From contig JAJEDB010000129.1 of NCBI GenBank assembly GCA_022821725.1, positions 7,914 to 71,913 on the forward strand: DNA of 64,000 bases, given 5' to 3'. The stretch comes from Candidatus Poribacteria bacterium (lineage in GTDB: Bacteria > Poribacteria > WGA-4E > WGA-3G). A model generated the notes under the pieces. That model did no database searches. It was given only the letters and a program-made list of their open reading frames with translations, and was not told the origin of the DNA. Below, in pieces: positions 9,390 through 55,650 of the stretch; positions within the stretch are counted from its first letter, which is position 1, and each line of letters starts with the position of its first letter. Position numbers and translations under genes: made by a program.

Positions 9390-11531
9390 TCACTGTTCTT
9401 GGGTTTCTTCGGGCAGACGGAAGTGCGGCCCGCCATCGGTCGATTCGATGGTAAAGCCGCTCCAGCCCCACCTGTTATATCTACCTTTTACATGGGTATA
9501 TACCACTTGCGTTAAATGCTCATCTGTAATTGTGATAGTGTAACGGCTATCAATCGTCTCATTTCCTACAGGAATCTGCAATTGCTGAATCTGTTTCTTA
9601 CCATTCGCGATAAGATTTACTTCTAACGGTTCAGATCTATCCTCTTCATCTACTATATTTGCACTGAAATAACAGACCACTTCATAAGTGCCATTCGGAA
9701 GTGCGACCCGGAAAACCGCATCTTCTTTCCCCAAAATGCTATCTGCGTAAGGTTGTGCAACCCCGAATTTGTTTTGTGACGCTTCCCGCGCCGATACCGT
9801 TAACCAGCCGTATTTCCCATCCGTGTAGACGGTATCCACATATACAGGAATATGTCCGGGTGCTGTCTGACCCTCTTCAGGCTGCATGTCAAAAGAGACA
9901 AAGGTTTCGCCATTCCACATCTGCGAATCGGGCGGCGTGCGTTTGCGGCGGTAGAGTCGGTTGTAGTCGTTAGCATCAATAAGATCATACTCTTCTTCCA
10001 AACCACCAACGTCGCCGTATTCTGTCCGCCAAATGATAGCGAAGTCGGCAAGATGTTCCTTTTCCTTATACGCCTCCTTATACCGTAGCGGAAAATGGTC
10101 TGTATTCGCCTCGTAGTTATCGAGATAAGCGATCCCTTTATGCACCGCCAACAGACACTCAAGATGACCGAAGGGTTCAACGTATTTCGGTTCAAAACCG
10201 AGCGAATCTGAAAAACCACCCCATTCTCCGGGTTCACTCGTGAGAATTGTATCCTTTTCGTCAATACCCTCCAACGCGATAGCATTGGCAATGTCGCGGT
10301 TCAACAAGGTATAAGTGTGAACGTTGTAACCGAGGTGCCATAAGGATAAAGCAATGATAATCGCTCCGGCAGCATAGTTTATATGCCGATGCAAATTGAC
10401 GGCAAAGAATGGAATCAAGATAAGGAATATGTACAGATGAAATCGGTCATTTATCCAGCCACCGCTGTAGCCAGACCAAGGAGCTATGAAAAACATCACC
10501 GTGATAACGACAGACATGATCAGAAACCCGTCCATTTGTGACACAGCACGTGTCCAGAGGCGTTCGCCAGTCTCTTTCCATGCCTCTGATTTATGGAATT
10601 TGTAACACTGCCAGATTCTGTTGGTGATTGTCAGGACAATAGCGATAGCAAAAAAGATCAGCAGTACACGTCCAATCAGCACATGATCGTCTCGGAAAGA
10701 GACCAAGGATTTCATGCCAAAGAAGTAGTCGTTTAACCATTCAAAACCCTTATGATTGCTGTTACCTCCGTGGTTGTTAGAAAGGTAGAAGTAGTAGGAG
10801 AACAGGATAAAGTAAGCAGGTATAAGACTCCCTATGAAAGTCAATGTCGGTTTGTGCCTCCCTACACTCACCTTGAGTCGGTGCATGAGTGGCTGTGATG
10901 TCTCCTTATGACTCCATACCCGATGTAACACATCATAAGCCGATAAAAAGAGAGGGAAGAACGTCAATGACATGATAAGCACCGCGTAAGAGTGATAGTG
11001 GGTGAGGTAGGTCACCAACGACAATACGTATATGACAATGATGTTTGTCAGCCGGAGTTTATCCTTGACCCGCCACCAGTAACCCATCGTGAAGAAAAAC
11101 AGGGACATGCTGAGGACAAAGTTGTAGAACCCCATGTGAAGTAGGTAGTTGTAGGCAAAAATAAACCCAAGCAGTCCAAACACTATATTCTTTTTCTCGA
11201 CACGGTTGAGAAAATAGAAAAGGGAGAGCGGTAGGAGACCGATGCAGAGCGTAAGCACTATCTTTTCACAAACGAGGGGTGGAAAAACGTATAACAGGAC
11301 GACAAGGAGCGCGTGGGAGGTCCAGTTCGGGAAGATCGTGGCGTTCAGTTCATAGACTTCGCGTAATCGGTAGTTTTCGTGATTGTGGTATTCCTTCACC
11401 ACGTAGGAATTGTAGATATGACTCGCTCCATCTTGCGTCGGGAAATACTTGAAACCCCAGACCGGCAGAAGATGTAGTACTATTAACACAATGACGGTAA
11501 TATACCCAACAGATAACAGACGTGTTTTCAT
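9390..11531 (-). CDS. Polytopic membrane protein with a large C-terminal soluble domain (possible GT-C-like glycosyltransferase; function unknown)
   Basis: ATG at 11531 (MKTRLLSVGYITVIVLIVL...) is preceded by GGGGGA. More than 12 hydrophobic segments are followed by ~280 soluble residues. The 77 codons upstream in the track ORF look non-coding. Confidence 0.55.
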   Translation of the reverse strand: MKTRLLSVGYITVIVLIVLHLLPVWGFKYFPTQDGASHIYNSYVVKEYHNHENYRLREVYELNATIFPNWTSHALLVVLLYVFPPLVCEKIVLTLCIGLLPLSLFYFLNRVEKKNIVFGLLGFIFAYNYLLHMGFYNFVLSMSLFFFTMGYWWRVKDKLRLTNIIVIYVLSLVTYLTHYHSYAVLIMSLTFFPLFLSAYDVLHRVWSHKETSQPLMHRLKVSVGRHKPTLTFIGSLIPAYFILFSYYFYLSNNHGGNSNHKGFEWLNDYFFGMKSLVSFRDDHVLIGRVLLIFFAIAIVLTITNRIWQCYKFHKSEAWKETGERLWTRAVSQMDGFLIMSVVITVMFFIAPWSGYSGGWINDRFHLYIFLILIPFFAVNLHRHINYAAGAIIIALSLWHLGYNVHTYTLLNRDIANAIALEGIDEKDTILTSEPGEWGGFSDSLGFEPKYVEPFGHLECLLAVHKGIAYLDNYEANTDHFPLRYKEAYKEKEHLADFAIIWRTEYGDVGGLEEEYDLIDANDYNRLYRRKRTPPDSQMWNGETFVSFDMQPEEGQTAPGHIPVYVDTVYTDGKYGWLTVSAREASQNKFGVAQPYADSILGKEDAVFRVALPNGTYEVVCYFSANIVDEEDRSEPLEVNLIANGKKQIQQLQIPVGNETIDSRYTITITDEHLTQVVYTHVKGRYNRWGWSGFTIESTDGGPHFRLPEETQEQ

Positions 11532-14831: not shown

Positions 14832-15851
14832 CTATTTCTGTTTGATTTGTCCCCATGTTGTCGTCAATAAATTCGGTTTAGGTGCGACTGGCAGGGCATA
14901 CGCTGGATCGAACCAGTCGTCTGGGCTATTTGCTTGGAAGAACTCTCCAAATACCTTTGGTATAAAAGTATCTGTGAGCTGCTCCGAAACATCGCTGCCC
15001 AACGCTATTTTGAAGACTTGCAAGCGGTTATGCTTATCGGTTTTGTCATACAGAAGGGCATCCCCTTGCGGAGACCAGACCGGCGAAGTTTCTCTCGGGG
15101 GAGTATTGCTTGCAACTCGTTTAAGTCCGGTCCCGTCGCTATTTAGCGTATAAAGCGTTTCCATTTCAATGTTTTTCTGTTCCGCTCCCGGATTCCAAGA
15201 AAAAGCCAGCTGATCCGTTGTTGAAGACCATACTAAAGTGCCATTTATCCAAGTAGATTGTGCCTCGCGTGGAAAGAGCACCTTCTGTTTTTTCGTGCGC
15301 ACGTTAAGCATATTGATTCGCACCTGCTTGTTCTCAAATCCAGAGAGGAAGGCTATCTGCGTCCCATCAGGAGACCACGCCGGTTTACCTCCTCCGATCG
15401 CCACGCGTTCCTCTTTTTTCCCATCTATTGTCCCGATGTAGATATACGATCCATTCAGTTCTCGCCTTCTGTAAGCAATCTGTTTCCCATCTGGCGACCA
15501 CGTCGCTGCAGATCTGTCTTCTGACTTGCCGAACACCCGCCTCACATTTTTGCCATCAGGATCCATGAGATACAGGTCTCGACTGAGCGTAAACCGATCA
15601 CGGTCAGAGGCAAAAAGAATGTGTTCCCCGGTTGGAGACCAAGCGGCCAGGGCATCATCTGAACGATGGTTGGTCAACCGCATCTGATCGCTTCCATCAG
15701 GATTCATCATATAGATTTCGCGATTGCCGTCACGTGTTGAGGTAAACACAATTTTGGCGGTTGTAGGTGCTTTTGAACATATTCCAGAAACGCTGACGCT
15801 TAGTAAACTCACCGTCACGACAGCAGATAGAAAAAAACGTTTATATTTCAT
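14832..15851 (-). CDS. Exported TolB-like beta-propeller (PD40 repeats), paralog 1, with conserved C-terminal tail
   Basis: Signal peptide. Repeated 'IVFTSTRDGNREIYMMNPDGS', 'AWSPTGEHILFASDRD', 'WSPDGKQIAYRR' PD40 units. Ends 'ALPVAPKPNLLTTTWGQIKQK*'. Confidence 0.8.
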   Translation of the reverse strand: MKYKRFFLSAVVTVSLLSVSVSGICSKAPTTAKIVFTSTRDGNREIYMMNPDGSDQMRLTNHRSDDALAAWSPTGEHILFASDRDRFTLSRDLYLMDPDGKNVRRVFGKSEDRSAATWSPDGKQIAYRRRELNGSYIYIGTIDGKKEERVAIGGGKPAWSPDGTQIAFLSGFENKQVRINMLNVRTKKQKVLFPREAQSTWINGTLVWSSTTDQLAFSWNPGAEQKNIEMETLYTLNSDGTGLKRVASNTPPRETSPVWSPQGDALLYDKTDKHNRLQVFKIALGSDVSEQLTDTFIPKVFGEFFQANSPDDWFDPAYALPVAPKPNLLTTTWGQIKQK

Positions 15852-15878
15852 CAGAATTCCTCCACGAGTTAAACTTAA

Positions 15879-15970
15879 CAGGACTTACGCAAAATGACCA
15901 AATTTCACCTATTTTCACAGGATTCGGTGCGGTTAGAAACCGCACCTACCGGGGGAGTGCGTAAGTCCTA
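15879..15970 (+). mobile_element. MITE family 1, copy B
   Basis: 12-nt TIRs AGGACTTACGCA/TGCGTAAGTCCT. Hairpin 15926-15946. ACTTAA duplicated at 15873-15878 and 15971-15976. Confidence 0.85.
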
Positions 15971-15995
15971 ACTTAAAACACATTATTATAGACGA

Positions 15996-16979
15996 TTATT
16001 GTTTTAATCGTCCCCATATCTCTGTTGCCAATTGGGGTTGTGGTGCGACTGGCAATGCGAACGCTGGATCGAACCAATCCCCTACAAAATTCCGGAAACT
16101 GGGATCGGCGAGTTGCACCGGTTCGCCACCATCCACTGTAACTTTGAAGATTTGCTGCGTGTCATTCCGGTCCAGTTGACTATAAAGCAGTGTGTCTCCT
16201 CGTGGAGACCACACTGGCTCTACGGCTCGCTTTCCTTCTTCAATAATCTGCTGTAGACCTGTGCCATTACGCTTGACAATATAGATTGTCTCTAAATGCG
16301 CATCCTCGCGCCGAAACTCAACACGATTATACCAAGAGAACACCAATCTATCTCCTTCCGGCGACCATGCCGGATGCCGAACCCACGCGGGTCCCTTGGG
16401 CGGAAAAAAGAACTTGTGTTTACGCGTTCGCACATCTAATATACTAATCCGCCTGGGGTTTCCTACTGCCCCTTCAATAAAGGCGATCTCCGTGCCATCA
16501 GGAGACCACACGGGTTGGCTGCCAAGTGCGATACGTTCCTCTTTTTTACCATCTATTGGTGCGATATAAATATAGAACTTCCCCTGCTCCCAGCGGCTGT
16601 AAGTGATCTGTTTGCCATCCGGCGACCATGTTGCCCTGCCCCGCGCCGCTTCCTTCTCGAACACGCGCCGCACATTCGATCCATCGGCATCCATCAGATA
16701 CAGATCCCAGTCTCCTGGAGCCCCGTCTTGGTCAGAGTTAAAAAGAATGTGTTCGCCCGTCGGAGACCATTTCGGACCGCCATCCCTTGCGAGATCGTGG
16801 GTGAGGCGCACCTCCTCGCTGCCATCGGGATTCATGAGATAGATGTCCAGATTCCCATGACGCCACGATGAAAACACTATTTTTGCTGATGTGGGTGCTC
16901 CCGCCCACACCTCATAGATACCTATGTCTACTGCGGCTACACTTAGCAGAAAACATAGGAGAAAACACTTATGTCTCAT
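15996..16979 (-). CDS. Exported TolB-like beta-propeller (PD40 repeats), paralog 2
   Basis: ATG at 16979 (MRHKCFLLCFLLSVAAV...) has GAGG 6 nt upstream. PD40 repeats. Ends 'ALPVAPQPQLATEIWGRLKQ*'. Confidence 0.8.
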   Translation of the reverse strand: MRHKCFLLCFLLSVAAVDIGIYEVWAGAPTSAKIVFSSWRHGNLDIYLMNPDGSEEVRLTHDLARDGGPKWSPTGEHILFNSDQDGAPGDWDLYLMDADGSNVRRVFEKEAARGRATWSPDGKQITYSRWEQGKFYIYIAPIDGKKEERIALGSQPVWSPDGTEIAFIEGAVGNPRRISILDVRTRKHKFFFPPKGPAWVRHPAWSPEGDRLVFSWYNRVEFRREDAHLETIYIVKRNGTGLQQIIEEGKRAVEPVWSPRGDTLLYSQLDRNDTQQIFKVTVDGGEPVQLADPSFRNFVGDWFDPAFALPVAPQPQLATEIWGRLKQ

Positions 16980-17039
16980 GGAATACCTCATCACAGGAAA
17001 ATTATAATTCAGGACGTTCCACACCAATCTAACGACCAA

Positions 17040-17161
17040 TAGGACTTACGCAATTTTGATCATTGTTCTCGCTATGAGAAAGGGATTGTATAAAAAACAT
17101 AGGCGGTCTGTGGCACAGGCTAACAGCCTATGCTACAAAAGAGCGTCCTACGTAAGTCCTA
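17040..17161 (+). mobile_element. MITE family 1, copy C (same ends, different 120-nt core)
   Basis: AGGACTTACGCA ... TACGTAAGTCCT. The core carries a CTGTGG-[CAGGCT-AAC-AGCCT]-ATGCTACAAAA hairpin instead of the GGTGCGGTT hairpin. GACCAA is duplicated on both flanks. Confidence 0.75.
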
Positions 17162-17198
17162 GACCAATCTCCGGAAGCACTATATTCGCAAACAGCCG

Positions 17199-18176
17199 TT
17201 ACTTCGTTTTTATTTCTCCCCACTGTGTCGTTAACAATTGGGGTTGTGGTGCGACTGGCAATGCAAACGCAGGATCGAACCAGTCACCTACAAAATGCCA
17301 AAATTCTGGATTCGTGAGTCGCACAGAAACGCCGCCATTCAACCCAATTTTGTAGATTTGCAACGGCTTGTCTTTGACACGTCGGTTATAAAGCAGGGCA
17401 TCTCCCCGAGGGGACCAGACGGGAGAGGTTGCTCTCGAACCTTCTTCGTCAATAACCTGTTGAAGTCCTGTACCATCTCGGTTTATAATGTATATTGTCT
17501 CTGTATCAGCAAACTGTTTCAATGGGACCTGATGGAGCCATGTAAACGCTATTTGATTCCCTGAAGGGGACCATGCTGGAGATGTCATCCACGAAGGTCT
17601 TACCGGTCTGGGAAACAATACCTTCTGTTTACGCGTGCTGACGTTGAGAATCGTGATCTGCATGCGCTCGGGCCACCCCGTAAGAAAAACGATTTCTTCT
17701 CCATCCGGTGACCACGCAGGACTCCCCCCAAAAGCCACCTCTTCCTCATTTTTGCCATCTATTGTCCCGATGTAGATATACGCGCCACTCGGTTCTCTCC
17801 GTCTATAAGCAATCTGTTTCCCGTCCGGCGACCACGTCGCTGCAGATCGATGCGCTTCTTTGCCAAATACCCTCCGGACGTTCGAGCCGTCCGGCTCCAT
17901 CAGATATAAGTCAAGCACACCCCCTCGATCCGACGCAAAGAGAATATGCTCACCTGTCGGAGACCACATCGGATAGCCATCGAGTGCCTTGTGCTGGGTA
18001 ATGTTTACCTGATCAGTACCATCAGGATTCATGATATAGATGTCTCGATTTTCGTCACGATAGGCTGAAAAGACAATTTTAGGGGTGTCAGGTGCTTTTG
18101 CCAAAACAGGGTAGATATTCAGGCATAACATTACGTAACTTAACGCGAAAAAGAACGAGACGTATGGATTTCTCAT
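17199..18176 (-). CDS. Exported TolB-like beta-propeller (PD40 repeats), paralog 3
   Basis: ATG at 18176 (MRNPYVSFFFALSYVMLCLNIYPVLA) is preceded by GAAGGAAAAAATA. PD40 repeats. Ends 'ALPVAPQPQLLTTQWGEIKTK*'. Confidence 0.8.
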   Translation of the reverse strand: MRNPYVSFFFALSYVMLCLNIYPVLAKAPDTPKIVFSAYRDENRDIYIMNPDGTDQVNITQHKALDGYPMWSPTGEHILFASDRGGVLDLYLMEPDGSNVRRVFGKEAHRSAATWSPDGKQIAYRRREPSGAYIYIGTIDGKNEEEVAFGGSPAWSPDGEEIVFLTGWPERMQITILNVSTRKQKVLFPRPVRPSWMTSPAWSPSGNQIAFTWLHQVPLKQFADTETIYIINRDGTGLQQVIDEEGSRATSPVWSPRGDALLYNRRVKDKPLQIYKIGLNGGVSVRLTNPEFWHFVGDWFDPAFALPVAPQPQLLTTQWGEIKTK

Positions 18177-18403
18177 TATTTTTTCCTTCAAAGCAGAAAA
18201 GAAATATAACCATCCATTATTATATTATCAAGTATGATATGAATTCAACAAACATAAGTAGGGTTAGAAAAAACCCTTAATTATAAAGACACAATTTCAG
18301 GATGGAAAGGGTGCATAATTTTAAAAATCGGTGCGTTAGGTGCGTATATTCATCAAGCAAGGCGATTTTCGCTGAATATACCCTAATCAAGTTTTACACC
18401 ACC

Positions 18404-18530
18404 TGAGACTCATTTTCTACTGGATGGAATCTGAGGAAACACGAAATTCAGATTTGAAAAAAATGTGGAAATGTGATAACATGTTCACAATTTAAAATTC
18501 AAAAACGGTAGCCTGCAACAACAGCGCAGG
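18404..18530 (+). repeat. Direct repeat copy A bracketing the restriction-modification segment (uninterrupted 'empty-site' version)
   Basis: 18447-18530 aligns with 22865-22947 at roughly 90% identity by eye. The similarity extends upstream to 18404 ('TTACACCACCTGAGACTCATTTTCTAC...'). Confidence 0.8.
18454..18482 (+). promoter_or_regulatory. Sigma-70-like promoter inside repeat copy A
   Basis: TTGAAA - 17 nt - (TGa)TAACAT, with an extended -10 TG. Lies 255 nt upstream of the RM gene start. Confidence 0.35.
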
Positions 18531-18736
18531 GTGTTTTGATAGGGGTTTTTGCTTGGGTGTTTCTGCGTATTTCTGCGTATTGCTTGGGGTATTTGCTGAG
18601 GGGTTTCTGCAGATTTTTTCAGATTCCACGGATTTTTTGGGCACTTGTCCTACAGGTATTTAGCCCTGTAGAGGCGACATCTGGACCGCCTAAAATCGCC
18701 CAAAGTTTAGTCAATTTGACGTAGAGGTAGCAAACA

Positions 18737-21700
18737 GTGGTATTACCCTTTAACAATACTTTATTTTCCAGTTATCACCTTGAAAAAGTTGTAGAAAATC
18801 AAACATCGGATACATTGAAGTCTGTCTACGATCAGATTAAACAACTTTACGCCTCTGTGACTGGATTTGTAGAGAATCTGAATGAACCACAAACGGAGGA
18901 GCAATTCATCCGCCCGGTCCTGAAATGCCTTGGACATGTCTTTGAAGTCCAGCCAATACTACCAACATCCTTAGGGACAAAGCAACCAGATTACGCCTTT
19001 TTTGCTGACCAAGAATCGTTGGATACAGCACATCCACAGGTTAATACAGATGCCTTTTTCAATACAGCAGTCGCTGTCGGCGATGCTAAGGCGTGGAAAA
19101 AAGACCTTGATAAGAAAGCAGTGGTCGGTGGAGATCATTTTTCTAACGCTAATCCTAACTATCAGATTGATTTCTATATTCGCACATCAGAGCTCAGATG
19201 GGGAATGCTGACAAGTGGAAAATTATGGAGGCTTTACCATCGGGATACAAGTTATAAGTTAGATAGTTTTTACGAAGTTAACCTTGAAAAGATACTAACC
19301 GATGGAGATATAGATGCGTTTCGTTATTTTTATTATTTTTTTCGGAGTGAGGCACTCGTTCCAGCCCCTTCTCATCGATCCTTTCTGGATGATGTGTTAT
19401 CAGGCAGTATCCACTATACCGTTTCAGTTTCAGATGATCTCGGAGAGAAAATATATTTAGCATTAGAAGAACTCATCAACGGATTTTTAAGCTATCAAGA
19501 GAACAATTTAACCACTTCTGCTGCCGATGTAGAGAAAATACATGAAAATAGTCTTATTCTGCTTTATCGCCTGCTGTTTGTGCTATACGCCGAAAGCCGT
19601 GGACTCTTGCCTCTTCAGAATCCTGAATATCAGACCGGATACAGTGTAGAGGGACTGGCTATCGAGATACATAGTCAGTTAGACACCGGAGCCGTAGTTC
19701 CTGATTTACGCAGTGATCACTGGGACCGTCTCCAAACCCTTTTTAAGCTCATTGACAAAGGATGGGAAAAAGACATCCCTCAATATAATGGAGGGCTTTT
19801 CAATCCGACACGCCATCAATTTCTGGTAAAGAAGAAAATTGGGAACCGATCTCTCGCTAAGGTTATAGACACATTGACCCGGACAACAGAACAAGAACGT
19901 ATTGCATATCAAGATTTAGCGATTCAGCACTTGGGCAATATTTATGAAGGGCTGCTTGAATATAAGCCGACTGTGCAGCATCAAACCGGAGGCGTGAAAT
20001 TAAAGAAAAATAGAAATGCTAAAAAGGCAAGTGGTAGTTATTATACCTCTGATGCGATTGTGCGATCGATGGTTGAAAACGCGCTAAGTCCTCTCTGTGA
20101 GCGAAAAGCGTTTGAAGAAATCTTGAGACTGAAGGTATTAGATCCTGCTATCGGAAGTGGACATTTCCTTATTGGTGTGATTGATCACTTGGCATTGGAG
20201 TTAGCAACACATCCTGACGCGCCACCTATGGAAACTGAGGACATTGACACAGAAATTGCATATTGGCGTAGACGCGTTGTGGAAACGTGTATCTATGGTG
20301 TAGACAAAAATCCGATGGCAGTGGAGTTAGCGAAAGTAGCTCTCTGGCTTCACACCGTGGCAAAAGGAAAGCCTCTCTCGTTTTTGGATCACCATATCCG
20401 GTGTGGAAATTCGCTGGTTGGGGCAAACATCGCTAATCTCGCGAATTTACCTGTCCCTAAGAAATCTCGCCGTTCCCCGGAAACACTCCAGCCTACTTTC
20501 GATATAGTTTTCGAGTTCACCAACACCGTCTCTGAAGCAGTCGGACACTATCTTAAGATTGATAGTATAGAGAGCTCGACTGCTGAAAATATACATCTTA
20601 TGGAGAAGGAACTGGAACAGGCACAGCAAACGCTCAATCAACACAGAGAAATTGCGAATCTCTGGCTAAGTGTCTATTTTGGCAATGAGGTTAACCGCGG
20701 TGATTACCATAATATACTCAGCGTTCTGAAATCAGGACAGGTGGCAGACTTTTCCAACCTTCAAGGTTATAAAAAAGCGCAACAATTAGCGGAAGACTAT
20801 CGCTATTTCCATTGGGAGATTGAATTTCCAGAAGTCTTTCGCGATGAACTGGGAAATGAATTGGAAAACCCTGGCTTTGACGTTATCGTCGGTAATCCAC
20901 CGTACGGGGCAAAGCTTACCTCTCACGAAAAAGCACACTTAAAGACAGTCAGAACAGATACCGGAAACAATAATAATAGTGCTGCATTCTTCATAGACAT
21001 TGCTAAAAACCGTTTGATGAAATCTGATGGGGTGCTCGCCTTCATCGTGCCAAAGTCACTGTTATTCGTTAAAAATTGGCATCGTTTGTTTTTTGCACTG
21101 TTGGAAAAAACTCGAATTTTGATTGACGTAGGCGAGGCTTTTAGAGGAGTCAAACTGGAACAGGTAATTTTCATCTATGACTCTTGCTATAAAGAAAGTT
21201 TTTACGAAGCACGCAGATTCGTCAATGAAGCCCCGGTTGGGAAGACACGTGTCTTTTACTCTTATCCGAAACTGTTTCAGACATGGATATGTGATGTTTC
21301 ACTTGAAGATATCCAAATCGGTTTAAAGGTCAGGCAAATTGGAACATTGATGAAAGACATTTCTGATACAAAGCGAGGTTTACCATGGCAAAGCAAACTG
21401 AGTGAATCCGGCGATGTTCCAGTCGTTGGGGGAAAGCAAATCGTTCGCTACGGGACGAATGGGATTAAGGGTTTTGTAAACTTCGAAGATTTAGAGCCTC
21501 TCGAAGATTCGGATTCTCTTAATGAAAAAATCGAATTTTTACAGCAACCGAAGGTAATGTCACAGAATATTATAGCACATATTACCGATCCAAAACCACA
21601 CATCAAAATTACGGCAACAGCAGACCGGACAAATGAGGTATTAAGTGTAGATACAGTAACGAATACTGTCCTTACTGATAGAAACATCTCTCCCATTTTT

Positions 21701-22009
21701 ATCTCGGCTCTTTTGAATTCGACGTTGATCAATTGGTACGCCCACAAATTTATTTTTTCTTCCGCTGTTAGGACTATGCATTTTGACCAGGACTATGTTG
21801 GCAAGATACCAATCCCCATCGTAACATTAGCAGAACAACAACCGATAATTGAATTAGCGGAGCAGATTATGACAGCGAAGCAGAAAAATCCAGAAGTCGA
21901 TACGTCTGCGAAGGAGCAGAAAATTGATACTTTAGTGTATAACCTATATGGACTGGAAGCAAAGGAAAGGAAGATTGTCCAATCGTCAATTGAACGATCA
22001 CACTCCTGA
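18737..22009 (+). CDS. Type IIG (MmeI/Eco57I-like) restriction-modification enzyme: fused PD-(D/E)xK nuclease, N6-adenine methyltransferase and target-recognition region
   Basis: 1090 aa with GTG start. N-terminal 'QPDYAFF...AVGDAKAWKK' (PD...D-x-K). SAM motif I 'VLDPAIGSGHFLIG'. 'YGVDKNPMAVELAKVALWL'. Catalytic motif IV 'VIVGNPPYGAKL'. Long C-terminal TRD-like region. Confidence 0.85.
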   Translation: MVLPFNNTLFSSYHLEKVVENQTSDTLKSVYDQIKQLYASVTGFVENLNEPQTEEQFIRPVLKCLGHVFEVQPILPTSLGTKQPDYAFFADQESLDTAHPQVNTDAFFNTAVAVGDAKAWKKDLDKKAVVGGDHFSNANPNYQIDFYIRTSELRWGMLTSGKLWRLYHRDTSYKLDSFYEVNLEKILTDGDIDAFRYFYYFFRSEALVPAPSHRSFLDDVLSGSIHYTVSVSDDLGEKIYLALEELINGFLSYQENNLTTSAADVEKIHENSLILLYRLLFVLYAESRGLLPLQNPEYQTGYSVEGLAIEIHSQLDTGAVVPDLRSDHWDRLQTLFKLIDKGWEKDIPQYNGGLFNPTRHQFLVKKKIGNRSLAKVIDTLTRTTEQERIAYQDLAIQHLGNIYEGLLEYKPTVQHQTGGVKLKKNRNAKKASGSYYTSDAIVRSMVENALSPLCERKAFEEILRLKVLDPAIGSGHFLIGVIDHLALELATHPDAPPMETEDIDTEIAYWRRRVVETCIYGVDKNPMAVELAKVALWLHTVAKGKPLSFLDHHIRCGNSLVGANIANLANLPVPKKSRRSPETLQPTFDIVFEFTNTVSEAVGHYLKIDSIESSTAENIHLMEKELEQAQQTLNQHREIANLWLSVYFGNEVNRGDYHNILSVLKSGQVADFSNLQGYKKAQQLAEDYRYFHWEIEFPEVFRDELGNELENPGFDVIVGNPPYGAKLTSHEKAHLKTVRTDTGNNNNSAAFFIDIAKNRLMKSDGVLAFIVPKSLLFVKNWHRLFFALLEKTRILIDVGEAFRGVKLEQVIFIYDSCYKESFYEARRFVNEAPVGKTRVFYSYPKLFQTWICDVSLEDIQIGLKVRQIGTLMKDISDTKRGLPWQSKLSESGDVPVVGGKQIVRYGTNGIKGFVNFEDLEPLEDSDSLNEKIEFLQQPKVMSQNIIAHITDPKPHIKITATADRTNEVLSVDTVTNTVLTDRNISPIFISALLNSTLINWYAHKFIFSSAVRTMHFDQDYVGKIPIPIVTLAEQQPIIELAEQIMTAKQKNPEVDTSAKEQKIDTLVYNLYGLEAKERKIVQSSIERSHS

Positions 22010-22093
22010 AAATCCTACAATCCGTCAAAGTTTATCAGGTTGATGCGGCGACAACATCCTACGCTACAGATTCTCCATATACTATTGCGACTT

Positions 22094-22351
22094 TCAGTGG
22101 ACGGGATGTCTATACTTGTGAAGTGACAACAACGTCTCTTCAACGGCAGTAGGGAGTTGGATAGGGTGAAAACGGTTAATTGTATAGGCATAATCTTCGC
22201 CGCTTTCATCAATAACGCGAATATAGCCGTGAAGTGCCGCTTCATCATCTTGGACAACACGATACACTTTCCCCACTTCAAGAGATGTTGGGTATCCCTC
22301 GTTATTAAGACATAAGACGAATTGCGTAAGTTGGTCAACTTTTGTAGTCAT
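22094..22351 (-). CDS. Small conserved hypothetical protein (85 aa), convergent with the RM gene
   Basis: 'LNNEGYPTSLEVGKVYRVVQDDEAALHGYIRVIDESGEDYAYTINRFHPIQLP' matches a recurrent small-protein pattern (...YP.SLE..K.Y.V..D.....g.iRViDESGEDY.Y....F..i.LP) that I recall from many bacterial genomes, with no assigned function. Confidence 0.55.
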   Translation of the reverse strand: MTTKVDQLTQFVLCLNNEGYPTSLEVGKVYRVVQDDEAALHGYIRVIDESGEDYAYTINRFHPIQLPTAVEETLLSLHKYRHPVH

Positions 22352-22541
22352 CTTTCATCAATCAAGAAATGGGAGTTTAATTTTAAATTCTCTCTTTCCG
22401 ATGTTGTCAGCTTGATACCAATGCACTGTAGATATTTAATTGTAGCACACTTCTAAAGATTTCTCAAATCAAAACATGCGAGACACGCAGATTCGTTCGT
22501 GAATTTCATTCCGCTTACCCCACCTAAGACCTCATTTTCTA

Positions 22542-22696
22542 ACCTAAGTTGCCACTTGTAGCACAAACTTTATAGTTTGTGTCTGTGGATGCGCAAACTA
22601 AAAGTTTACGCTACAAAACGTTTATGCATCATGACCCATTTCGATGAAAAACGCTATCTGCAGGTTTCCGAAAATCTCGTAAGTAGCAACTTGCGT
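22542..22696. mobile_element. MITE-like insertion (family 2) present only in repeat copy B
   Basis: Imperfect 16-nt TIRs ACCTAAGTTGCCACTT / AAGTAGCAACTTGCGT. 'TTTTCTA' flanks both sides (22535-22541 and 22697-22703), whereas copy A has a single TTTTCTA (18423-18429) at the homologous position. Confidence 0.65.
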
Positions 22697-22871
22697 TTTT
22701 CTATTGGATAGAATCTGGGAAAAATCCGAAAATGAAGATTAAGAATTTAATCAGGTAATTCCCCAACGTGCGATAAATCGCACTACTACGAACCAACCCG
22801 TTTGTAGTAGGGAGACCATTCATGGTTTCCCGTCAATTACCCAATTTATCTATTAAGCCTCATATTCGGAT

Positions 22872-22900
22872 TTGAAAAAAATGTGGAAATGTGATAACAT
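22872..22900 (+). promoter_or_regulatory. Sigma-70-like promoter inside repeat copy B
   Basis: Identical TTGAAA-17-(TGa)TAACAT, 113 nt upstream of the ATG at 23013. Confidence 0.4.
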
Positions 22901-23012
22901 GTTCATAACCTAAAATTCAAAAACGAGAGCCTGCAACAATACGCAGGCAGACTTCAGGAACGAATCTCAGAGTCTTAACGCTCGCTATTTCTCCGCAAGG
23001 TAAATTTAAAAA

Positions 23013-25217
23013 ATGGTTATCACAGTCGACGAAAGCTACCGCCATAAGAGGGATCGCACTGAACAACAACTCTTCGCAGTCGTTGAACAGAATACGCCGG
23101 ATTCCATAAAAACACCTCTGTTTCCGCAAGATGAACCCAATGCCTTCACGTTCCACCTTGATAAGGAACGGATTGCGCGTTTGAACCTCTGGGAATGGTT
23201 CCGTAACTACGCGAAAGAAGCACAAGTCTCGACCGCCGGTATCCGCGGTCCACAGAATATTTTATACCCATGGGACACCCGCTTCCCGATTAACCAGATT
23301 GGGATTATTTTAGCAACGCTCGGAAAAAGTCTCGTCGCGAATGAAACCGCAGATGGAAGGTTGGTTGAGAAACTCGCCGGATGCGAGGTGCGCTACAACT
23401 CACAGAAATATGTCGAATACATCGCCCGTATCCAAGCCGGACAAGGGATTCGGACGTATGTGCCGAAATCATTTGGCACCCTCCCCATCTGGATGGCATC
23501 GTTTTTGATCTTCATGCTTGATTTGGACGGTGGCGAACACGTCACGTCAAGCCATTCCGTCAGTACAAAAAACGCCACCAAAGACCTCAACAATCAGGGA
23601 AGCCAATACCTACCCGAGGAATCCATGCGGTTCGTCAACAAAATTGAAGAGATCCTCACAATCGCTGAGACGGACAGCTATCCCATTCAGTTCAGTGCCG
23701 TTAGCGACGCTCACATCGATTTTGAACGACTGGAAGAACTTCACGACGGCGTGCAGCTTTATGTCGGCTATCTCAAAGGCGGCGTTGCTACAGATGCGAA
23801 TCTCAAACTCATCCGCGAGACGAAACCCTCCATTGTTATCGATTGTGTTGGTGGGTGTATGTATCGTCCGATGCGTGCCATCTTTGAACGGTTGGGAATC
23901 GCCAACGCTGTTCGCTGGCTCCACGTTGAGGCGGACCCGCTCTATCACAACATCGGAAAACTCGATCGGAATCCGAAAACGGGTGAAACTGAATTTTACG
24001 ATCTCGGTTGCGACTTTAGTATCCTCGATGTCGTCACATCCACAGATTACGCAACGAAACTCAAATCGCAGCCCATTGGAACCATTATCGAAGCGACCGA
24101 TCCGGATGGCGACCGACTCATCGTCTGTGAAATAGAGGACGCATCACGCTCAGAAACGTTGGAACAACTCGGCATTGATTTTCTTGATCTCGGGGACGAC
24201 CGACTCTTGACGATCTATACACCGAATCAAGCGTTCCTGATGTTGATGGACTTCTACGCCAAGCAACTGAAAACCGCCGGTCTTTGGGAAGATCATCCGC
24301 GGTTCATGATTAAGACGACACCCTCCGCGCTCGCGTGGGATCAGTGGGGTGATGCGAACAGTGTGAAGGTCATTAACGTTCCTGTCGGTTTCAAGGAGAT
24401 CGCCGCGATTATGAAAAAGATTGAACGACAGTTGGCTGATGCGCCAGAGGCGCCCGTTGTTGTTCAAGATGTCTACGGTAAAACGATTTCACTGGGTGTC
24501 CAACCGCGACTGATTTTCGCAGGTGAAGAGAGCGGAGGCATGATTACCGGTCCCGAAAAACTCATCCAGAGCCAGAGCCGTCGCACAGCGATTGCGATGC
24601 GTGAAAAATCGGCAGGTGAATCCATGGTGCTGGTTACGGCACTCGCAGCGCATTGTAAAGCGGCAAATATTTCGCTCTCTGACTATCTCGCCGCTGTGTT
24701 TGCAGAGAGCCAAATTACAGCGATGTATGACGTGAGAGAGGACATCACGTATTACAACGAATCGGAGCCAAATCCTGAAAAACTCCGGGCAGCGAAGCGT
24801 GAAGGCGAGGCGAAACGCGATAAAAACGACCTGTTTTTTCTCGGCATCGCCATTGCGCTCCGAGATGGGAAAATAGATGTAGAACACGCACGTGCCATCC
24901 TCTCAGATGCCCTGCCGAGCCTTGATTTCTCAACGCTTGAGGATGTCAGATTTGTTGGCGACGGCAGTTATCTCAAGTTTCACGATAAATGTGTTGAAGT
25001 CCGAAAGTCCGGCACGGATGCGAAAACCAAAGCCTACGCCTCTGGCAGCGATAAGAAAGAGTGTCGGAAGTTCGCCAAAGCCTTCGGTGAAGCAAGTGGT
25101 GAATTAACCGAACTTTACACCGAACAAATAGGTCAAAATTACTTAGGGGATGTTGAAAGCAGAGCACGCCAGATTTACGATGCATTTCAGTCAGCTAAAA
25201 AAGGAGAATTATCATGA
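23013..25217 (+). CDS. Alpha-D-phosphohexomutase superfamily protein (PGM/PMM-like, unusually long and divergent)
   Basis: 734 aa. Phosphoserine-loop-like 'HVTSSHSVS', metal loop 'TDPDGDRLIV', sugar loop 'GEESGGMI', phosphate loop 'VRKSGTDAKTKAY'. Conserved leader TCCGCAAGGTAAATTTAAAAA-ATG. Confidence 0.65.
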   Translation: MVITVDESYRHKRDRTEQQLFAVVEQNTPDSIKTPLFPQDEPNAFTFHLDKERIARLNLWEWFRNYAKEAQVSTAGIRGPQNILYPWDTRFPINQIGIILATLGKSLVANETADGRLVEKLAGCEVRYNSQKYVEYIARIQAGQGIRTYVPKSFGTLPIWMASFLIFMLDLDGGEHVTSSHSVSTKNATKDLNNQGSQYLPEESMRFVNKIEEILTIAETDSYPIQFSAVSDAHIDFERLEELHDGVQLYVGYLKGGVATDANLKLIRETKPSIVIDCVGGCMYRPMRAIFERLGIANAVRWLHVEADPLYHNIGKLDRNPKTGETEFYDLGCDFSILDVVTSTDYATKLKSQPIGTIIEATDPDGDRLIVCEIEDASRSETLEQLGIDFLDLGDDRLLTIYTPNQAFLMLMDFYAKQLKTAGLWEDHPRFMIKTTPSALAWDQWGDANSVKVINVPVGFKEIAAIMKKIERQLADAPEAPVVVQDVYGKTISLGVQPRLIFAGEESGGMITGPEKLIQSQSRRTAIAMREKSAGESMVLVTALAAHCKAANISLSDYLAAVFAESQITAMYDVREDITYYNESEPNPEKLRAAKREGEAKRDKNDLFFLGIAIALRDGKIDVEHARAILSDALPSLDFSTLEDVRFVGDGSYLKFHDKCVEVRKSGTDAKTKAYASGSDKKECRKFAKAFGEASGELTELYTEQIGQNYLGDVESRARQIYDAFQSAKKGELS

Positions 25218-26305: not shown

Positions 26306-26564
26306 TTTTTAATTATTCGCAAGGCGTTCAATGAAGTGATTTGTTTACTGAGGGTTCTTCTTTAAATCCGCCCGCGCCGTTGTTGCGGGCTACGGTCTTA
26401 ATCCAATTTTTTTGCACATAACCGTAGCCCACAATGGAATGGAGGGGTTTTTGCGAATCAACGCCGAATGCGCGTGTGGCATTCAGCGGGGTGTTTCTTC
26501 AGATAAATAGAATGCACGTCAACTTCTAAACGCACACTATTACTCCGCAAGGAAAACGAGAAAA
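26306..26564 (+). repeat. Composite intercistronic repeat region (IG1)
   Basis: Begins right after the stop codon with TTTTTAATTATTCGCAAGGCGTT. Contains hairpin GCCCGC-GCCGTTGTT-GCGGGC (26370-26390), modules shared with 40521-40557 and 55477-55527, and ends in the TCCGCAAGGAAAACGAGAAAA-ATG leader. Confidence 0.75.
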
Positions 26565-27767
26565 ATGAAGAGCCATAACGTCACGATGCTCGGTACTGGA
26601 CTCATCGGAATGTTCTACACGATGACGCTCCACAACCAACGCGGCGCAGACCGCGTCCACAGCGTCTATTCACGGCGCGAAGAACGTGCGACAGCGTTCG
26701 CCGAAGAGTGGAACATCCCCCACGCAACAACCGATCTATCAGAGGCTATCAACCATCCTGAAACGGATACCGTTGTCATTGGATTACCCAATAACTTGCA
26801 CCTGAAAGCCGTGGAGATCGCGGCAGCAGCCGGCAAAAGCATCCTCTCCACCAAACCGCTTGGACGCACTGCTGAAGAGGCAAAAGCGATGTTGGACATC
26901 GTTGAAAACGCCGGTGTCTTTGGCGGTTATCTTGAAGATCTCGTCTATCCCCCGAAAACCCTCAAAGCGTTAGCGTCCGTCCAAAACGGTGCCCTCGGTA
27001 AGATCCTGTGGGTGCGTTCCCGTGAGACGCATCCCGGTCCACACAGTGATTGGTTCTGGGATCTGGAGCAAGCAGGCGGTGGTGCCATTGTCGATATGGG
27101 GTGCCACTGCATCGAGATCATCCGAAACTTCGTTGGGAAAAATAACAGACCGCTTGAAGTGATGTGCTGGGCAGACACGCTCGTGCATCCCATTGATGCG
27201 GAGGACCACGGCATTGCGCTTATCCGATTTGAGAGCGGCGCGATGGGACAATTTGAGGTCGGCTGGGCATTCCGCGGGGGCATGGATTTACGTGACGAGG
27301 TCTCCGGGAGTGAAGGAACCATCTGGCTCAACCACTGGCTCCGCACAGGTTATGAGATGTTCACGGCTGTTGGGCAGGGGGGATATGTCGCTGAGAAAGC
27401 CGAGAGCGACACGGGTTGGCTTTTCCCCGTTGGCGATGAGGTCGTGGAGCTTGGCTATCGCGATATGTTCCTCGATATGTTCAACGCGATTGATGAAGGA
27501 CGTGAACCGATGGAAACCTTTTATGACGGTTACGTCGTGAACGCTATTATCGATGCTTGTTATAAATCCGCGAAATCGAAACAGTGGGAAGCCGTTGAAA
27601 TTCAGGAGTGGCGTGGCACAACGGAAACCGCTGATGCCCAAACCGCTAAGTCGGACACTGATGAACGATATGCCCCGCTCAAGAGTGAACGGATGCCGGA
27701 TGGCAGAATGAAACGCATTTTCCGGGATCGGGAAACAGGGGAAATTATTGAGAGAGTGGAAAATTAA
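26565..27767 (+). CDS. Gfo/Idh/MocA family oxidoreductase
   Basis: 400 aa. N-terminal Rossmann '[10 protein letters not shown]', '[10 protein letters not shown]', 'STKPL' (EKP-type motif), and a C-terminal alpha/beta domain. Confidence 0.8.
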
Positions 27768-50754: not shown

Positions 50755-51495
50755 TCAACGACTAAAGACACGGAACAATTTTTTGATCGGATCGTAGAAT
50801 TGGTCAACAACCCGTTCTTTGAGCGGAATAATGGCGTTATCCGTAATCGTGATATGCTCTGGGCAGACCTTCGTGCAACATTTGGTAATGTTACAATACC
50901 CGATCCCGTCCGAATCTTTCAATTCTTCGAGACGGTTCTCAGTGTCAATTGGGTGCATTTCCAAGGAAGCGGCGTAAACGAAGAATCTCGGTCCGATGAA
51001 TTCGTCATGAAGATCGTGTTCTCGGAGGACATGGCAGACATCTTGGCAGAGGAAGCATTCGATGCATTTCCGAAACTCTTGGATGTGATCGATGTCTTCC
51101 TGTTCCATCCGCCACGTGCCGTCTTCGGCATCCGGGGGTCGCGGCGTGAACGGCTTCATCTTCTCTTTCACTCTGAAGTTCCAAGATACGTCTGTAACGA
51201 GGTCTTTAATGAGCGGAAATGCCCGCATCGGTTCGACGGTAACGGGTTCATCAAGCGACAGATCGTTGAGGCGTGTCATGCACATCAATTTCGGTTGCCC
51301 GTTGATTTCGGCGGAGCAGGATCCGCATTTTCCTGCCTTACAATTCCATCGCACGGCCATGTCGTTTGCCTGCTCGGCTTGGATACGGTGGACAGCGTCT
51401 AAAACCACCATCCCTTCGGAAACCTCGGTGTCGTAATTGACAAATTCTGCGCCATCCGCATTGCCACGCCAGATTCTAAAAGTTGCTTTCCCCAT
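50755..51495 (-). CDS. sdhB: Succinate dehydrogenase/fumarate reductase iron-sulfur subunit
   Basis: 246 aa. 'CKAGKCGSCSAEING' (2Fe-2S), 'CIECFLCQDVC', 'CNITKCCTKVCP'. Confidence 0.9.
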   Translation of the reverse strand: MGKATFRIWRGNADGAEFVNYDTEVSEGMVVLDAVHRIQAEQANDMAVRWNCKAGKCGSCSAEINGQPKLMCMTRLNDLSLDEPVTVEPMRAFPLIKDLVTDVSWNFRVKEKMKPFTPRPPDAEDGTWRMEQEDIDHIQEFRKCIECFLCQDVCHVLREHDLHDEFIGPRFFVYAASLEMHPIDTENRLEELKDSDGIGYCNITKCCTKVCPEHITITDNAIIPLKERVVDQFYDPIKKLFRVFSR

Positions 51496-51734
51496 GTTTT
51501 AATTATTCCTTGCGGTTCGGTCAAGTCAGTTTGATATATGAAGTGCTTCTCCGTAGACCCGCTCTCCATTACATTACGAGCTACATGCTTGGTGGATTGA
51601 CAAAGACTTAATCTTTCCTTGCGTTTTTTTAATTTTACCCAAGACGGTAGCCTGCAACAACGGCGCAGGCGGATATGAGCAGAAGCCTTTGATAAACAAA
51701 AAGCCTAATTTAACGCCTTGCGAATAATTAAAAA
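51496..51734 (-). repeat. Composite intercistronic repeat region (IG2) between sdhA and sdhB
   Basis: In gene orientation it starts right after the sdhA stop with the same 23-mer TTTTTAATTATTCGCAAGGCGTT as IG1. It is colinear with IG1 for ~95 nt, including hairpin GCCTGC-GCCGTTGTT-GCAGGC (51650-51670). It ends in the ACCGCAAGGAATAATTAAAAC-ATG leader. Confidence 0.75.
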
Positions 51735-54664: not shown

Positions 54665-55402
54665 TTACACACGTGTATGCGTCAGAGGTTCCCAACCGAG
54701 CAGGCGTTTCGCTTTCGAGAGGTTAATCTCCTTCTGTTCATGATCCCCGGCAATGAAGAAAGCATCAAACCCTTCGTGTTCAACTGAAATCGCAGCGAGA
54801 TACGCGGTCGCCAAATCTTGCTCATCTGTCCACCAGATATGCACTGAGGACTCTTTCGGTTGGGTATAACGTTCAAGCCACTGTTCCCGCGTAGACGGAC
54901 CCGTGATCCGCAGTGCGATAAGCGACATGCCGTGTTCCCGTGAGAAGTATTCGCAGACCTGCTCGCCGAAACCCTTGGTTAACCCATAGACCCCCGGATT
55001 ATCGCGAGGTACGACATCCTCATACGGAAAATTGTTTCGTGTCCGTTCATGCACAGTGAAGGTACTCGTGTAGACGGCGTGTCGAATGCCTGCTTCCTTC
55101 GCGGCGTGTAGGACGATATGCAGTCCCTTCGCGTTCACTTCGTAGTTTGCGACAATGTCGCTGAAATCGGCGGCAGAGGACCGATCGCTCGTGGGTTGCA
55201 GCATCACCATATAGACGAACGTGTCCATCCCCTTCAACGCTTCCTGAACGATAGCAGGGTCGGTAACGGAGCCTTGGATGTAATCAATGGATGTATCTTT
55301 GGGCGGATTCGGGTCAAGGATTCGAAAATTGTGATGAGGCTTCATGTAAGGGAGTGTCATCGTCCCAACGTGTCCCGAACCCCCTATAAGCAAGACGTTC
55401 AT
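54665..55402 (-). CDS. NAD-dependent epimerase/dehydratase (SDR) family protein
   Basis: 'MNVLLIGGSGHVG' Rossmann motif. 'YGLTK' (YxxxK). Conserved leader TCCGCAAGGTATAATTAAAAA-ATG. Confidence 0.75.
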   Translation of the reverse strand: MNVLLIGGSGHVGTMTLPYMKPHHNFRILDPNPPKDTSIDYIQGSVTDPAIVQEALKGMDTFVYMVMLQPTSDRSSAADFSDIVANYEVNAKGLHIVLHAAKEAGIRHAVYTSTFTVHERTRNNFPYEDVVPRDNPGVYGLTKGFGEQVCEYFSREHGMSLIALRITGPSTREQWLERYTQPKESSVHIWWTDEQDLATAYLAAISVEHEGFDAFFIAGDHEQKEINLSKAKRLLGWEPLTHTRV

Positions 55403-55650
55403 TTTTTAATTATACCTTGCGGATAAGTCATAGCATCCGCGAATTTAACGGTTTGCGTGTTCGAGCCGCCCGCGTGTTTTTGCGAATCAACGCTGAATGC
55501 GCGTGTGGCATTCAGCGGGGCGTTTCTGCGTATTGTTGCGGGCTTGCGGTTGTCCTTTACCCGAAAACCTGATTATTATAGTAAATTCTGTAATTACTTA
55601 TACACTCAGCATCGGTGGGGTTAGGAAACCGCACCTACCGGGGGTTGAAA
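55403..55650. repeat. Composite upstream repeat region
   Basis: Contains the leader motif, a 51-nt module (55477-55527) nearly identical to 26448-26498, hairpin TCTGCGTATTGTTGCGGGCT (55525-55544), and a solo MITE-1 core GGTGGGGTTAGGAAACCGCACCTACCGGGGG (55614-55645). Confidence 0.7.

Follow-up and report, generated by a model that had tools for sequence, protein, structure and literature searches.

A probable horizontally acquired Type IIG restriction-modification cassette between two copies of a phosphohexomutase-like gene promoter in Candidatus Poribacteria

A 64-kb stretch of DNA from Candidatus Poribacteria (contig JAJEDB010000129.1; hereafter the window), a group of sponge symbionts, carries a Type IIG restriction-modification (RM) gene upstream of a gene encoding a phosphohexomutase-like protein (the mutase gene). 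We consider it highly probable that the RM gene belongs to a horizontally acquired cassette that was inserted at the 5′ end of the mutase gene and is now bracketed by two copies of its promoter region. Compared with the closest genomes, the cassette appears as an insertion, and its composition and divergence both point to a foreign origin. The right-hand copy (copy B) would keep the mutase gene intact and expressed, while the left-hand copy (copy A) would place a strong conserved promoter ~250 nt upstream of the RM gene, which is probably transcribed from it. As judged from its sequence, the locus would be a clear new example of insertion with long target duplication, a phenomenon already described for RM systems.

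The two copies were delimited by alignment. A ~140-nt segment (18391-18530, copy A) recurs at 22516-22947 (copy B), with no third site in the window. BLAST aligns 18446-18530 with 22864-22947 at 90.6% identity over 85 nt, and within this alignment a gapless core (18446-18521 versus 22864-22939) reaches 92% over 76 nt. Both copies contain the identical 37-nt stretch GATTTGAAAAAAATGTGGAAATGTGATAACATGTTCA, which includes TTGAAA-17 nt-TGaTAACAT, has exactly two sites in the window and was found zero times in 100 shuffles; a search with the hairpin part of the repeat likewise gave two matches in the window. A consensus scan scored both copies as promoter-like (TTGAAA, 17 nt, TAACAT, with the TG of an extended −10 ahead). 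Beyond the core, the alignment places the left limit of the repeat at ~18391 (A) and 22516 (B), at TTAC.CCACCT.AGAC, and over this longer stretch 114 of 141 positions are identical, a difference of ~19%. A preliminary description of the window had noted a promoter-bearing repeat, about 90% identical by eye, upstream of both genes, with the same promoter-like box in each copy, and both observations are borne out by these values. It had listed the RM gene and an 85-aa open reading frame (ORF) as the only contents of the bracketed segment; both are present, together with the last 25 codons of a further gene that it missed. It was also right in placing the second copy upstream of the mutase gene, where two insertions resembling miniature inverted-repeat transposable elements (MITEs) went unrecognised.

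To place the repeat among relatives, comparison sequences (L-numbered loci; ~1.9 Mb of related loci in total) were assembled. With the mutase-like protein as query, 80 syntenic loci were obtained, all from Candidatus Poribacteria (80 species); an exact-protein look-up gave no identical record for this protein. The 29-nt box TTGAAAAAAATGTGGAAATGTGATAACAT (≤6 mismatches) lies upstream of the orthologous mutase gene in 41 of these 80 species loci, being identical in a dozen species and differing at 1-6 positions in ~30 more. In the fetched loci, a repeat profile has a single match per locus in 49 sources; two matches are confined to the window and L087/L088. The promoter-bearing ~100 nt occur in the related loci only ahead of the mutase gene. 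Given the single match per locus, the repeat is, as far as sequence comparison can tell, the promoter and 5′ leader native to the mutase-like gene and not a dispersed module. An Rfam scan of the whole window at gathering threshold matched no RNA gene or family; hence the repeat is not a known RNA family. Both boxes are predicted to be active promoters.

The locus without the cassette was found in the closest relatives of the window, L001 and L003. Here, a PD40 gene is followed by the intergenic DNA found ahead of copy A in the window, one repeat and the mutase gene, which is 94.6% (L001) and 96.1% (L003) identical to that of the window at the DNA level; four other flanking genes are similarly close. 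The left-flank PD40 gene of the window is contiguous with L001 at ~90% as far as copy A, and the L001/L003 counterpart of the native intergenic DNA (18192..18390) runs directly into the single repeat. About 4.5 kb of DNA is extra in the window relative to L001, and the cassette between the copies measures ~3.9 kb (18620-22515). Neither its left end (18620..18736) nor its right end (22428..22515) is present at the empty sites.

Composition and divergence also set the cassette apart. Its GC content (18621-22515) is 41.7%, compared with 48.3% for the window, making it the lowest 3.9-kb stretch there, and GC at third codon positions (GC3) is 0.39 in the RM gene and 0.47-0.61 in 14 other genes. Synonymous divergence (dS) of the RM gene between species is 3-4 times below that of two flanking genes: 0.21 for RM, 0.80 for the mutase gene and 1.24 for the BNR gene between the window and L039, and 0.26, 0.83 and 0.64, respectively, between L015 and L026. 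Likewise, RM/cassette DNA of the window is 96% identical to that of L087 and 92% to that of L039, with mutase genes at 86% and 83-84%. The cassette appears to have moved between Poribacteria species after these had split, nearly always to a position directly upstream of the mutase promoter.

These results bear on the interpretation offered in the preliminary description, which had judged the segment to be AT-richer than its neighbours and devoid of integrases and transposases, had proposed that a defence cassette was inserted behind a resident promoter and the promoter region thereby duplicated, and had predicted an empty locus consisting of a TolB-like gene, a single repeat and the mutase gene. 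GC and GC3 do distinguish the cassette from its flanks, no integrase, transposase or TnpB is found in or beside it, and the empty loci of L001 and L003 have the predicted order and support the proposal. What it had named as counter-evidence was the same RM arrangement in all relatives, or a composition like that of the flanks together with a ubiquitous repeat; instead, relatives without the RM gene, a distinct composition and a repeat that is not ubiquitous were found. Its other suggestion, recombination between dispersed repeat modules, holds for the short GCCTGCAACAA..GCAGG hairpin only and fails for the promoter-bearing part, which is locus-specific.

RM genes were found at this locus in the window, L087-L089, L090, L039, L091/L092, L093/L094/L026, L015 and L097, with a remnant in L025, and in every RM-bearing example the gene is directly upstream of the promoter. 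Among the 80 species loci, an intact RM gene is restricted to L015, L026 and L039, with the remnant in L025; most have none. The close RM family consists mostly of unnamed metagenome proteins, every named one being from Poribacteria. The protein of the window is without an identical entry in a large protein collection (best match 94%), and a scan of metagenome contigs with it gave 6 loci, none of them close. Homologues at 76-80% identity are found at two unrelated loci, L095:6001-9255 (N6_N4 methyltransferase, RM, acetyl-CoA synthetase) and L098:7001-10270 (GFO oxidoreductase, RM, TnpB, ArgJ), which argues that the RM gene family is mobile within the phylum. Long flanking repeats were looked for around these two homologues and none were found.

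A second RM clade (~80% identical; L093/L026/L025) is found in the same interval, with junctions that differ from those of the first. Its insertion point lies in L016-like intergenic sequence; it has an ATG start, and is accompanied neither by the small genes described below, orf85 and orf78, nor by a duplicated repeat, which indicates an independent insertion or an allelic replacement. Degraded genes were seen as well: at L025:5634-6432, residues 1-162 are fused to residues 982-1086, and at L087:3958-7227, the RM gene is split into 677-aa and 381-aa ORFs, in the same way in L087, L088 and L089, which are independent assemblies.

The extent of the original duplication can be estimated from these three assemblies, which come from samples other than that of the window and share its cassette including orf85 and orf78. 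The mutase gene lies downstream in L087 and L088, and three PD40 genes lie upstream in L087. Both repeat copies are present in L087; in L088, copy A is represented by its end, alongside the cassette and copy B. Copy A of L087 is orthologous to that of the window (139/146 identical) and complete, with promoter, long leader carrying its own MITE, ATG and 31 nt of mutase coding sequence, ATGATTATCAGAGTTGACGAAAGTTATCGCC. The cassette left end, TTATCACAGATTTCACGGATTTTTTGGGCAC, directly follows this coding-sequence stub (L087:3805-3835), and ~265 nt of duplicated target are kept. Because L087 copy A preserves the leader, the ATG and the 31-nt stub, the original target was presumably larger than the repeat now seen in the window, reaching from ~60-70 nt upstream of the −35 to coding nt 31, or ~265 nt without later insertions. 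Window copy A is without ~240 nt that L087 keeps between two 9-nt CAGATTTCA repeats; the leader 3′ part, the MITE, the ATG and the mutase coding stub are gone, and the loss is, by its alignment, a microhomology deletion.

L087 further provides a comparison of occupied and empty alleles, as L008, an empty site, belongs to its own species (mutase gene 99.45% and BNR gene 99.8% identical). The −35 hexamer marks precisely where a 4.2-kb stretch of 99.67% identity between the two begins. Left of this point, L087 has 7.36 kb in place of 163 nt in L008, made up of a PD40 paralogue, copy A, the cassette, the left part of copy B and an IS605-type TnpB element. The imported PD40 paralogue is nearest to L001 (90%) and the window (86%). 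The TnpB element, of the IS605 family (432 aa, hairpin ends; L087:8027-9550, L088:4324-5847), sits between ATTCAGAT and the TTGAAA −35 of copy B, where identity to L008 begins. As the DNA left of the promoter in L008 matches neither L087 copy, L008 is not a deletion derivative of L087. The event in L087, the only one open to reconstruction, was thus the import of a ready-made two-copy block by flanking-homology recombination, with its right junction at the invariant promoter core. TnpB was also observed in L029, where it immediately precedes the mutase gene, and beside the RM homologue in L098, and an 82%-identical TnpB is located at L001:1219-2430.

The features of the window are collected in Table 1.

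Table 1. Positions of the cassette, the two repeat copies, their flanks and related short elements in the 64-kb window
Feature	Position	Strand	Remarks
PD40 (TolB-like beta-propeller) gene, third of three paralogues, left flank	17199..18191	-	Pfam PD40 E=1e-30; resident backbone
Native intergenic DNA upstream of promoter region	18192..18390		83-84% identical to L001:9685-9873 and L003:9667-9872
Copy A	18391..18530	+	Upstream region, promoter-like box, start of long 5′ leader with REP-like hairpin
Promoter-like box of copy A	-35 18454-18459; extended -10 TGaTAACAT 18474-18482	+	
REP-like hairpin in copy A	18510-18530	+	
Long-leader continuation of copy A	18531..18619	+	Dispersed G/T-rich modules (GGGGTTTTTG, GTTTCTGCGTATT)
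Deletion scar in copy A	18620..18631	+	CAGATTCCACGG; from pairwise alignment with L087
Cassette, non-coding left end	18620..18736	+	92-99% identical to L039:4789-4904, L087:3841-3957, L090, L091
Type IIG RM gene, 1090 aa	18737..22009	+	Pfam Eco57I, N6_Mtase, TaqI_C, MmeI_Mtase
orf85, intact small gene	22094..22351	-	85 aa, no Pfam match
orf78 remnant, last 25 codons of 78-aa gene	22361..22435	-	Upstream of orf85; tblastn 88% over 25 aa
Cassette, right end	22428..22515	-	Minus-strand promoter-like site 22467-22439, TTGAGA-17-TACAAT with TG, facing orf78/orf85; homologous to L039:8765-8851, L087:7873-7957
Copy B	22516..23012	+	Mutase promoter and complete long 5′ leader; two MITEs inside
Elements of copy B	-35 22872-22877; -10 22895-22900; REP hairpin 22928-22947; CCGCAAGG leader 22993-23000	+	
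MITE-like insertion 1 in copy B	22542..22696		155 nt, terminal inverted repeats AAGTTGCCACTT / AAGTTGCTACTT
MITE-like insertion 2 in copy B	~22733-22863		~131 nt, inverted ends ATGAAGATTAA / TTAAGCCTCAT, just upstream of -35
Mutase gene (target gene), 734-aa phosphohexomutase-like protein	23013..25217	+	Weak Pfam PGM_PMM I/III matches; orthologues in 80 Poribacteria species
REP-like hairpin sites	18510, 22928, 26380(-), 51649, 55533(-), 56709(-)		Both orientations relative to genes, intergenic
Leader module (T)CCGCAAGG sites	22993-23015, 26545-26567, 55400-55422(-), 51493-51515(-)		

The RM protein combines nuclease, methyltransferase and its own recognition domain in a single polypeptide. An N-terminal PD-(D/E)xK nuclease motif (P84-D85 ... 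D116-A117-K118) precedes a gamma-class N6-adenine methyltransferase (DPAIGSGHF at 469, NPPY at 720) and a TaqI-like target-recognition domain (Pfam TaqI_C, 895-1026). The PADLOC model REase_MTase_IIG matches it at E=2e-72, N-terminus 5-409 included. Among 97 full-length homologues, 96-100% retain the nuclease motif, DPAxGSGHF and NPPY, and a profile search with the family also retrieves CamA, BseCI and BrxX, which are adenine methyltransferases, as well as DrdV, a Type IIL enzyme. No S-subunit gene or second methyltransferase gene was seen adjacent to the RM gene in the window. The ratio of nonsynonymous to synonymous substitution rates (dN/dS) is ~0.18, which points to a gene under selection and speaks for its being functional. 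The enzyme looks intact and is predicted to be an active Type IIG protein that protects against foreign DNA. Assignment as the methyltransferase of a BREX (PglX) or DISARM (DrmMI) system was considered and rejected: the expected partner genes (PglZ, BrxC, BrxL; or DrmA, DrmB, DrmC) are missing, the neighbours being PD40, orf85 and the mutase gene, and the similarity is confined to the methyltransferase region, at 64 bits against NCBIfam cut-offs of 500-900.

The remainder of the cassette is taken up by orf78 and orf85, two small genes of one operon. Homologues of orf85 form at least 976 clusters, with named members all from Poribacteria and 21 invariant columns; an AlphaFold2 model (pLDDT 77) consists of an SH3-like beta-barrel and a C-terminal helix, for which the best PDB matches in a fold search are generic SH3 domains (E ~5e-3). 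In the window, orf78 is broken by a 184-nt deletion at 22427/22428 (BLASTN break against L039:8580/8765 and L087:7688/7873), while it is intact, adjacent to and co-oriented with orf85 in L039 and L087-L090; one orf85 homologue stands alone. Beyond the generic SH3-like fold, searches of Pfam, NCBIfam, PADLOC, PHROGs and PDB sequences identified neither protein and gave no match to the toxin or antitoxin families that would mark a Type II toxin-antitoxin pair. The pair is possibly an accessory two-gene module, maybe an addiction module, that is decaying in the window. From copy A up to the RM start, the consensus scan found no plus-strand terminator-like site and no further plus-strand promoter-like site.

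Two types of leader occur behind the mutase promoter. In 20 loci, the box is 62-66 nt from the ATG, with a GGAGG Shine-Dalgarno sequence, and in 21 loci it is at least 95 nt away, most commonly 142 nt. Two elements mark the long leader, namely the hairpin GCCTGCAACAA..GCAGG and the module CCGCAAGG-12 nt-ATG. These alternatives, short with GGAGG or long with the repetitive extragenic palindromic (REP) hairpin and CCGCAAGG, were observed as two alleles behind the same promoter, with a distribution that is patchy relative to gene identity (upstream of the mutase gene, ~9850-10000 per locus, L001-L039). The window has the long allele, its closest relatives L001 and L003 the short one.

Several short elements in the leaders also occur elsewhere. 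The REP-like dispersed hairpin, AGCC(T/C)GCAACAA..GC(A/G)GG, has 6 sites in the window (0.28 expected) and more sites in 14 loci; two of the sites, 26380 and 55533, have a compensatory T:A to C:G exchange in the stem, as is seen in REP-like elements, and in longer variants the loop is extended by further modules (GTTTCTGCGTATT, GGGGTTTTTGC). The module (T)CCGCAAGG, followed by 12 A-rich nt and an ATG, stands ahead of four long ORFs that have no canonical Shine-Dalgarno sequence, and may be a translation-initiation module typical of these bacteria. The leader continuation at 18531..18619 aligns to L087:3535-3612 and in part to the single-copy leader of L002, with related modules at 56654-56710 of the window and in L003 and L020. 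MITE-like insertion 1 is flanked by a 7-nt target duplication, TTTTCTA (22535-22541 and 22697-22703), and is missing from copy A and from the single copies at other loci; relatives of it were observed in 17 fetched sources, among them L093 (5680-5832), just upstream of the RM gene. Insertion 2 has one related copy, an 83% match at L032:4730-4832. A CRP-like site (TGTGA-N8-TCACA) in copy A was rejected as the second half-site is not conserved in the other copies.

Across species, the backbone of the locus consists of a sulfatase gene, 0-4 PD40 paralogues, the promoter and the mutase gene. Species differ in paralogue number within this range (window 14832-18191; L001-L038), and the similarity between paralogues is mosaic, the third copy of L003 being ~65% identical to that of the window next to neighbouring genes at 93-96%. 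In one species, L018 (5807-8134), a 775-aa NACHT-domain NTPase is encoded ~1.9 kb upstream of the mutase gene, where most other species have the sulfatase and PD40 genes. This suggests that the interval is a small hot spot for variable, partly defence-related cargo.

How the duplication first arose can be approached through three candidates: a single crossover of a circle that carries the target segment, homology-facilitated illegitimate recombination, and duplication in situ. The divergence between copies A and B would fit an old in-situ duplication and, equally, integration with one copy arriving on the incoming DNA. Under the single-crossover or the homology-facilitated illegitimate model, copy A would be expected to be cut off where the shared segment ends, as is seen. 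A fresh duplication in the window genome is unlikely, because its copies have diverged (114/141). At later stages, as the comparisons show, the leader 3′ part and coding stub of copy A were lost via the 9-nt repeats, two MITEs entered copy B, and a deletion broke orf78. More tentatively, the cassette may be an integrase-free, homology-guided mobile unit that carries the conserved promoter/gene-start segment along. Such a unit would loop out between its flanking copies and re-enter the same promoter of another species by single crossover, each time duplicating the promoter, so that the RM gene could be expressed without silencing of the target gene. In its favour are the low dS of the RM gene at one conserved locus in several species and the L087 junction exactly at the −35; we regard this extension as possible, though doubtful. 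Looping out and re-entry also feature in the RM-unit 'life cycle' proposed by the Kobayashi group (PMC2853133), for which natural cross-species evidence is scarce.

Horizontal acquisition was weighed against four other explanations. Were the RM gene and both repeats already present in the common ancestor, the empty loci would have arisen by deletion between A and B, which direct repeats of at least 140 nt permit; the RM gene is indeed found at the same locus in at least 6 species-level lineages, and degraded versions exist (the internal deletion of L025, the split gene of L087). We nevertheless judge this unlikely, given that RM dS is 3-4 times below that of the flanks, GC and GC3 are atypical, and most of the 80 species loci are without the gene. 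Recombination between A and B in the window would, moreover, leave a long leader, while L001 and L003 have a short one, and L008 left of the promoter is unlike either L087 copy despite flanks at 99.7%. Delivery by an IS200/IS605-type (TnpB) element or an integrase, the repeats being att or target sites, could draw on the TnpB found exactly at the copy B −35 in L087/L088, upstream of the mutase gene in L029 and beside the 80%-identical RM gene at L098. It is very unlikely all the same: TnpB, TnpA and integrase genes are missing from the window, L039, L090 and L091, the L087 TnpB element is bounded by hairpin ends of its own, outside the RM/orf85/orf78 unit, and repeats of 140-300 nt that have diverged are unlike att sites. 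IS200/IS605 elements are not known to make long target duplications.

That the RM gene came by chance to lie between two of many copies of a ubiquitous REP/MITE module is highly improbable. The hairpin part, AGCCTGCAACAA..GCAGG, is dispersed at the excess over expectation given above, as are the modules of 18531-18620 and the two MITEs, but within the 64 kb the promoter-bearing 100 nt have just two sites, and in the ~1.9 Mb of related loci they occur only ahead of the mutase gene, and L087 copy A runs on into mutase leader and coding sequence. We attach almost negligible probability to an assembly artefact in which a chimera or mis-join mimics the duplication. The window does probably come from a metagenome-assembled genome, and mis-joins typically occur at repeats; however, two copies that diverge at 8-19% of their positions, one of them with two extra MITEs, do not suit a collapsed or duplicated read pile, the same architecture recurs in independent assemblies (both copies in L087, partly in L088), and both junctions are shared at 92-99% identity.

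Several observations weigh against the horizontal insertion of the cassette with duplication of the promoter region. The comparison sequences are mostly metagenome-assembled genomes. L001 and L003, having a different, short 5′ leader allele, do not represent a simple 'before' state of the window. Comparison of copies A and B with relatives gives a mosaic pattern, from which the resident copy does not appear distinguishable. As A and B differ by ~19%, either the duplication would be old or the copies would come from different lineages. Finally, the other RM loci (L039, L090, L091, L093/L026, L015) have a single copy: neither BLAST nor an nhmmer profile found a left-hand repeat copy in L015, L026, L039, L090, L091 or L093. 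As only two lineages, that of the window and L087-L089, have two copies, long target duplication is not a general feature of loci with this cassette. In L039, L090 and L091, a 17-nt stretch, GGATTATCACGGATAAC, beside the sulfatase stop resembles the start of the mutase gene; as a remnant of the coding stub it is equivocal, because it is also an internal CGGATNA repeat.

Insertion at the promoter, as proposed here, would make the locus a well-resolved natural case of an RM gene entering, and moving between, genomes without a recombinase of its own. With a complete promoter as the duplicated target, one event would both spare the host gene and equip the incoming defence gene. RM systems are enriched in sponge symbionts (PMC5649159). 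The cassette would document recent exchange of a defence gene between species of these uncultivated symbionts. For annotation, the analysis provides a conserved Poribacteria promoter and several short intergenic repeat families.

Among known systems, integrase-borne genomic islands were rejected as a parallel, there being no integrase and no RNA gene (Rfam) in the window and the repeats being long and diverged; so was cargo of an IS200/IS605 (TnpB) element, with no TnpB in the window and that of L087 separate and outside the RM unit. Defence-island hot spots share a variable interval, here with 0-4 PD40 genes, RM genes of two clades, TnpB and a NACHT NTPase (L018), but the present one is small and holds one defence gene at a time, with no recombinase. 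Campbell-type or homology-facilitated illegitimate integration likewise leaves two non-identical host copies, one of them truncated (L087, nt 31), whereas the L087 event is a double-crossover block replacement and not a single crossover. The enzyme itself resembles characterised Type IIG/IIL enzymes (Eco57I, MmeI, DrdV) in its single chain, PD-(D/E)xK and NPPY motifs and C-terminal TaqI-like domain, although sequence similarity to any solved or characterised enzyme is limited to the methyltransferase and recognition part.

The closest counterpart is insertion with long target duplication, known from Helicobacter, Haemophilus, Neisseria, Microcystis and others (Furuta, Abe & Kobayashi, NAR 2010, PMC2853133). 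This class is defined by an RM unit of <20 kb without a mobility gene between direct repeats of >30 bp, both of which have to align to one copy in a related genome that is without the insert; in the published cases the repeats measure 46-423 bp, and Type IIG and IIS enzymes are among those represented (PMC2853133). In the window, restriction and modification functions are both within an insert of ~3.9 kb, the repeats are ~140 nt, and a single copy is found in L001/L003 for the window and in L008 for L087 (flanks 99.7%). No transposase or integrase was found in the cassette of the window or its flanks, and the repeat is not multicopy in the window or in the 49 fetched sources, which are loci rather than whole genomes. 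Atypical GC of the insert, flanking repeats and a related single-copy genome are thus shared with the class. In contrast to its described members, the target comprises a whole promoter, 5′ leader and gene start, so that the insert gains a promoter, and the copies are strongly diverged (81% identical). Moreover, the same locus recurs in several species, with occupied and empty alleles within one of them; one two-copy block was demonstrably transferred whole by flanking recombination; and the Poribacteria are a new phylum for the class.

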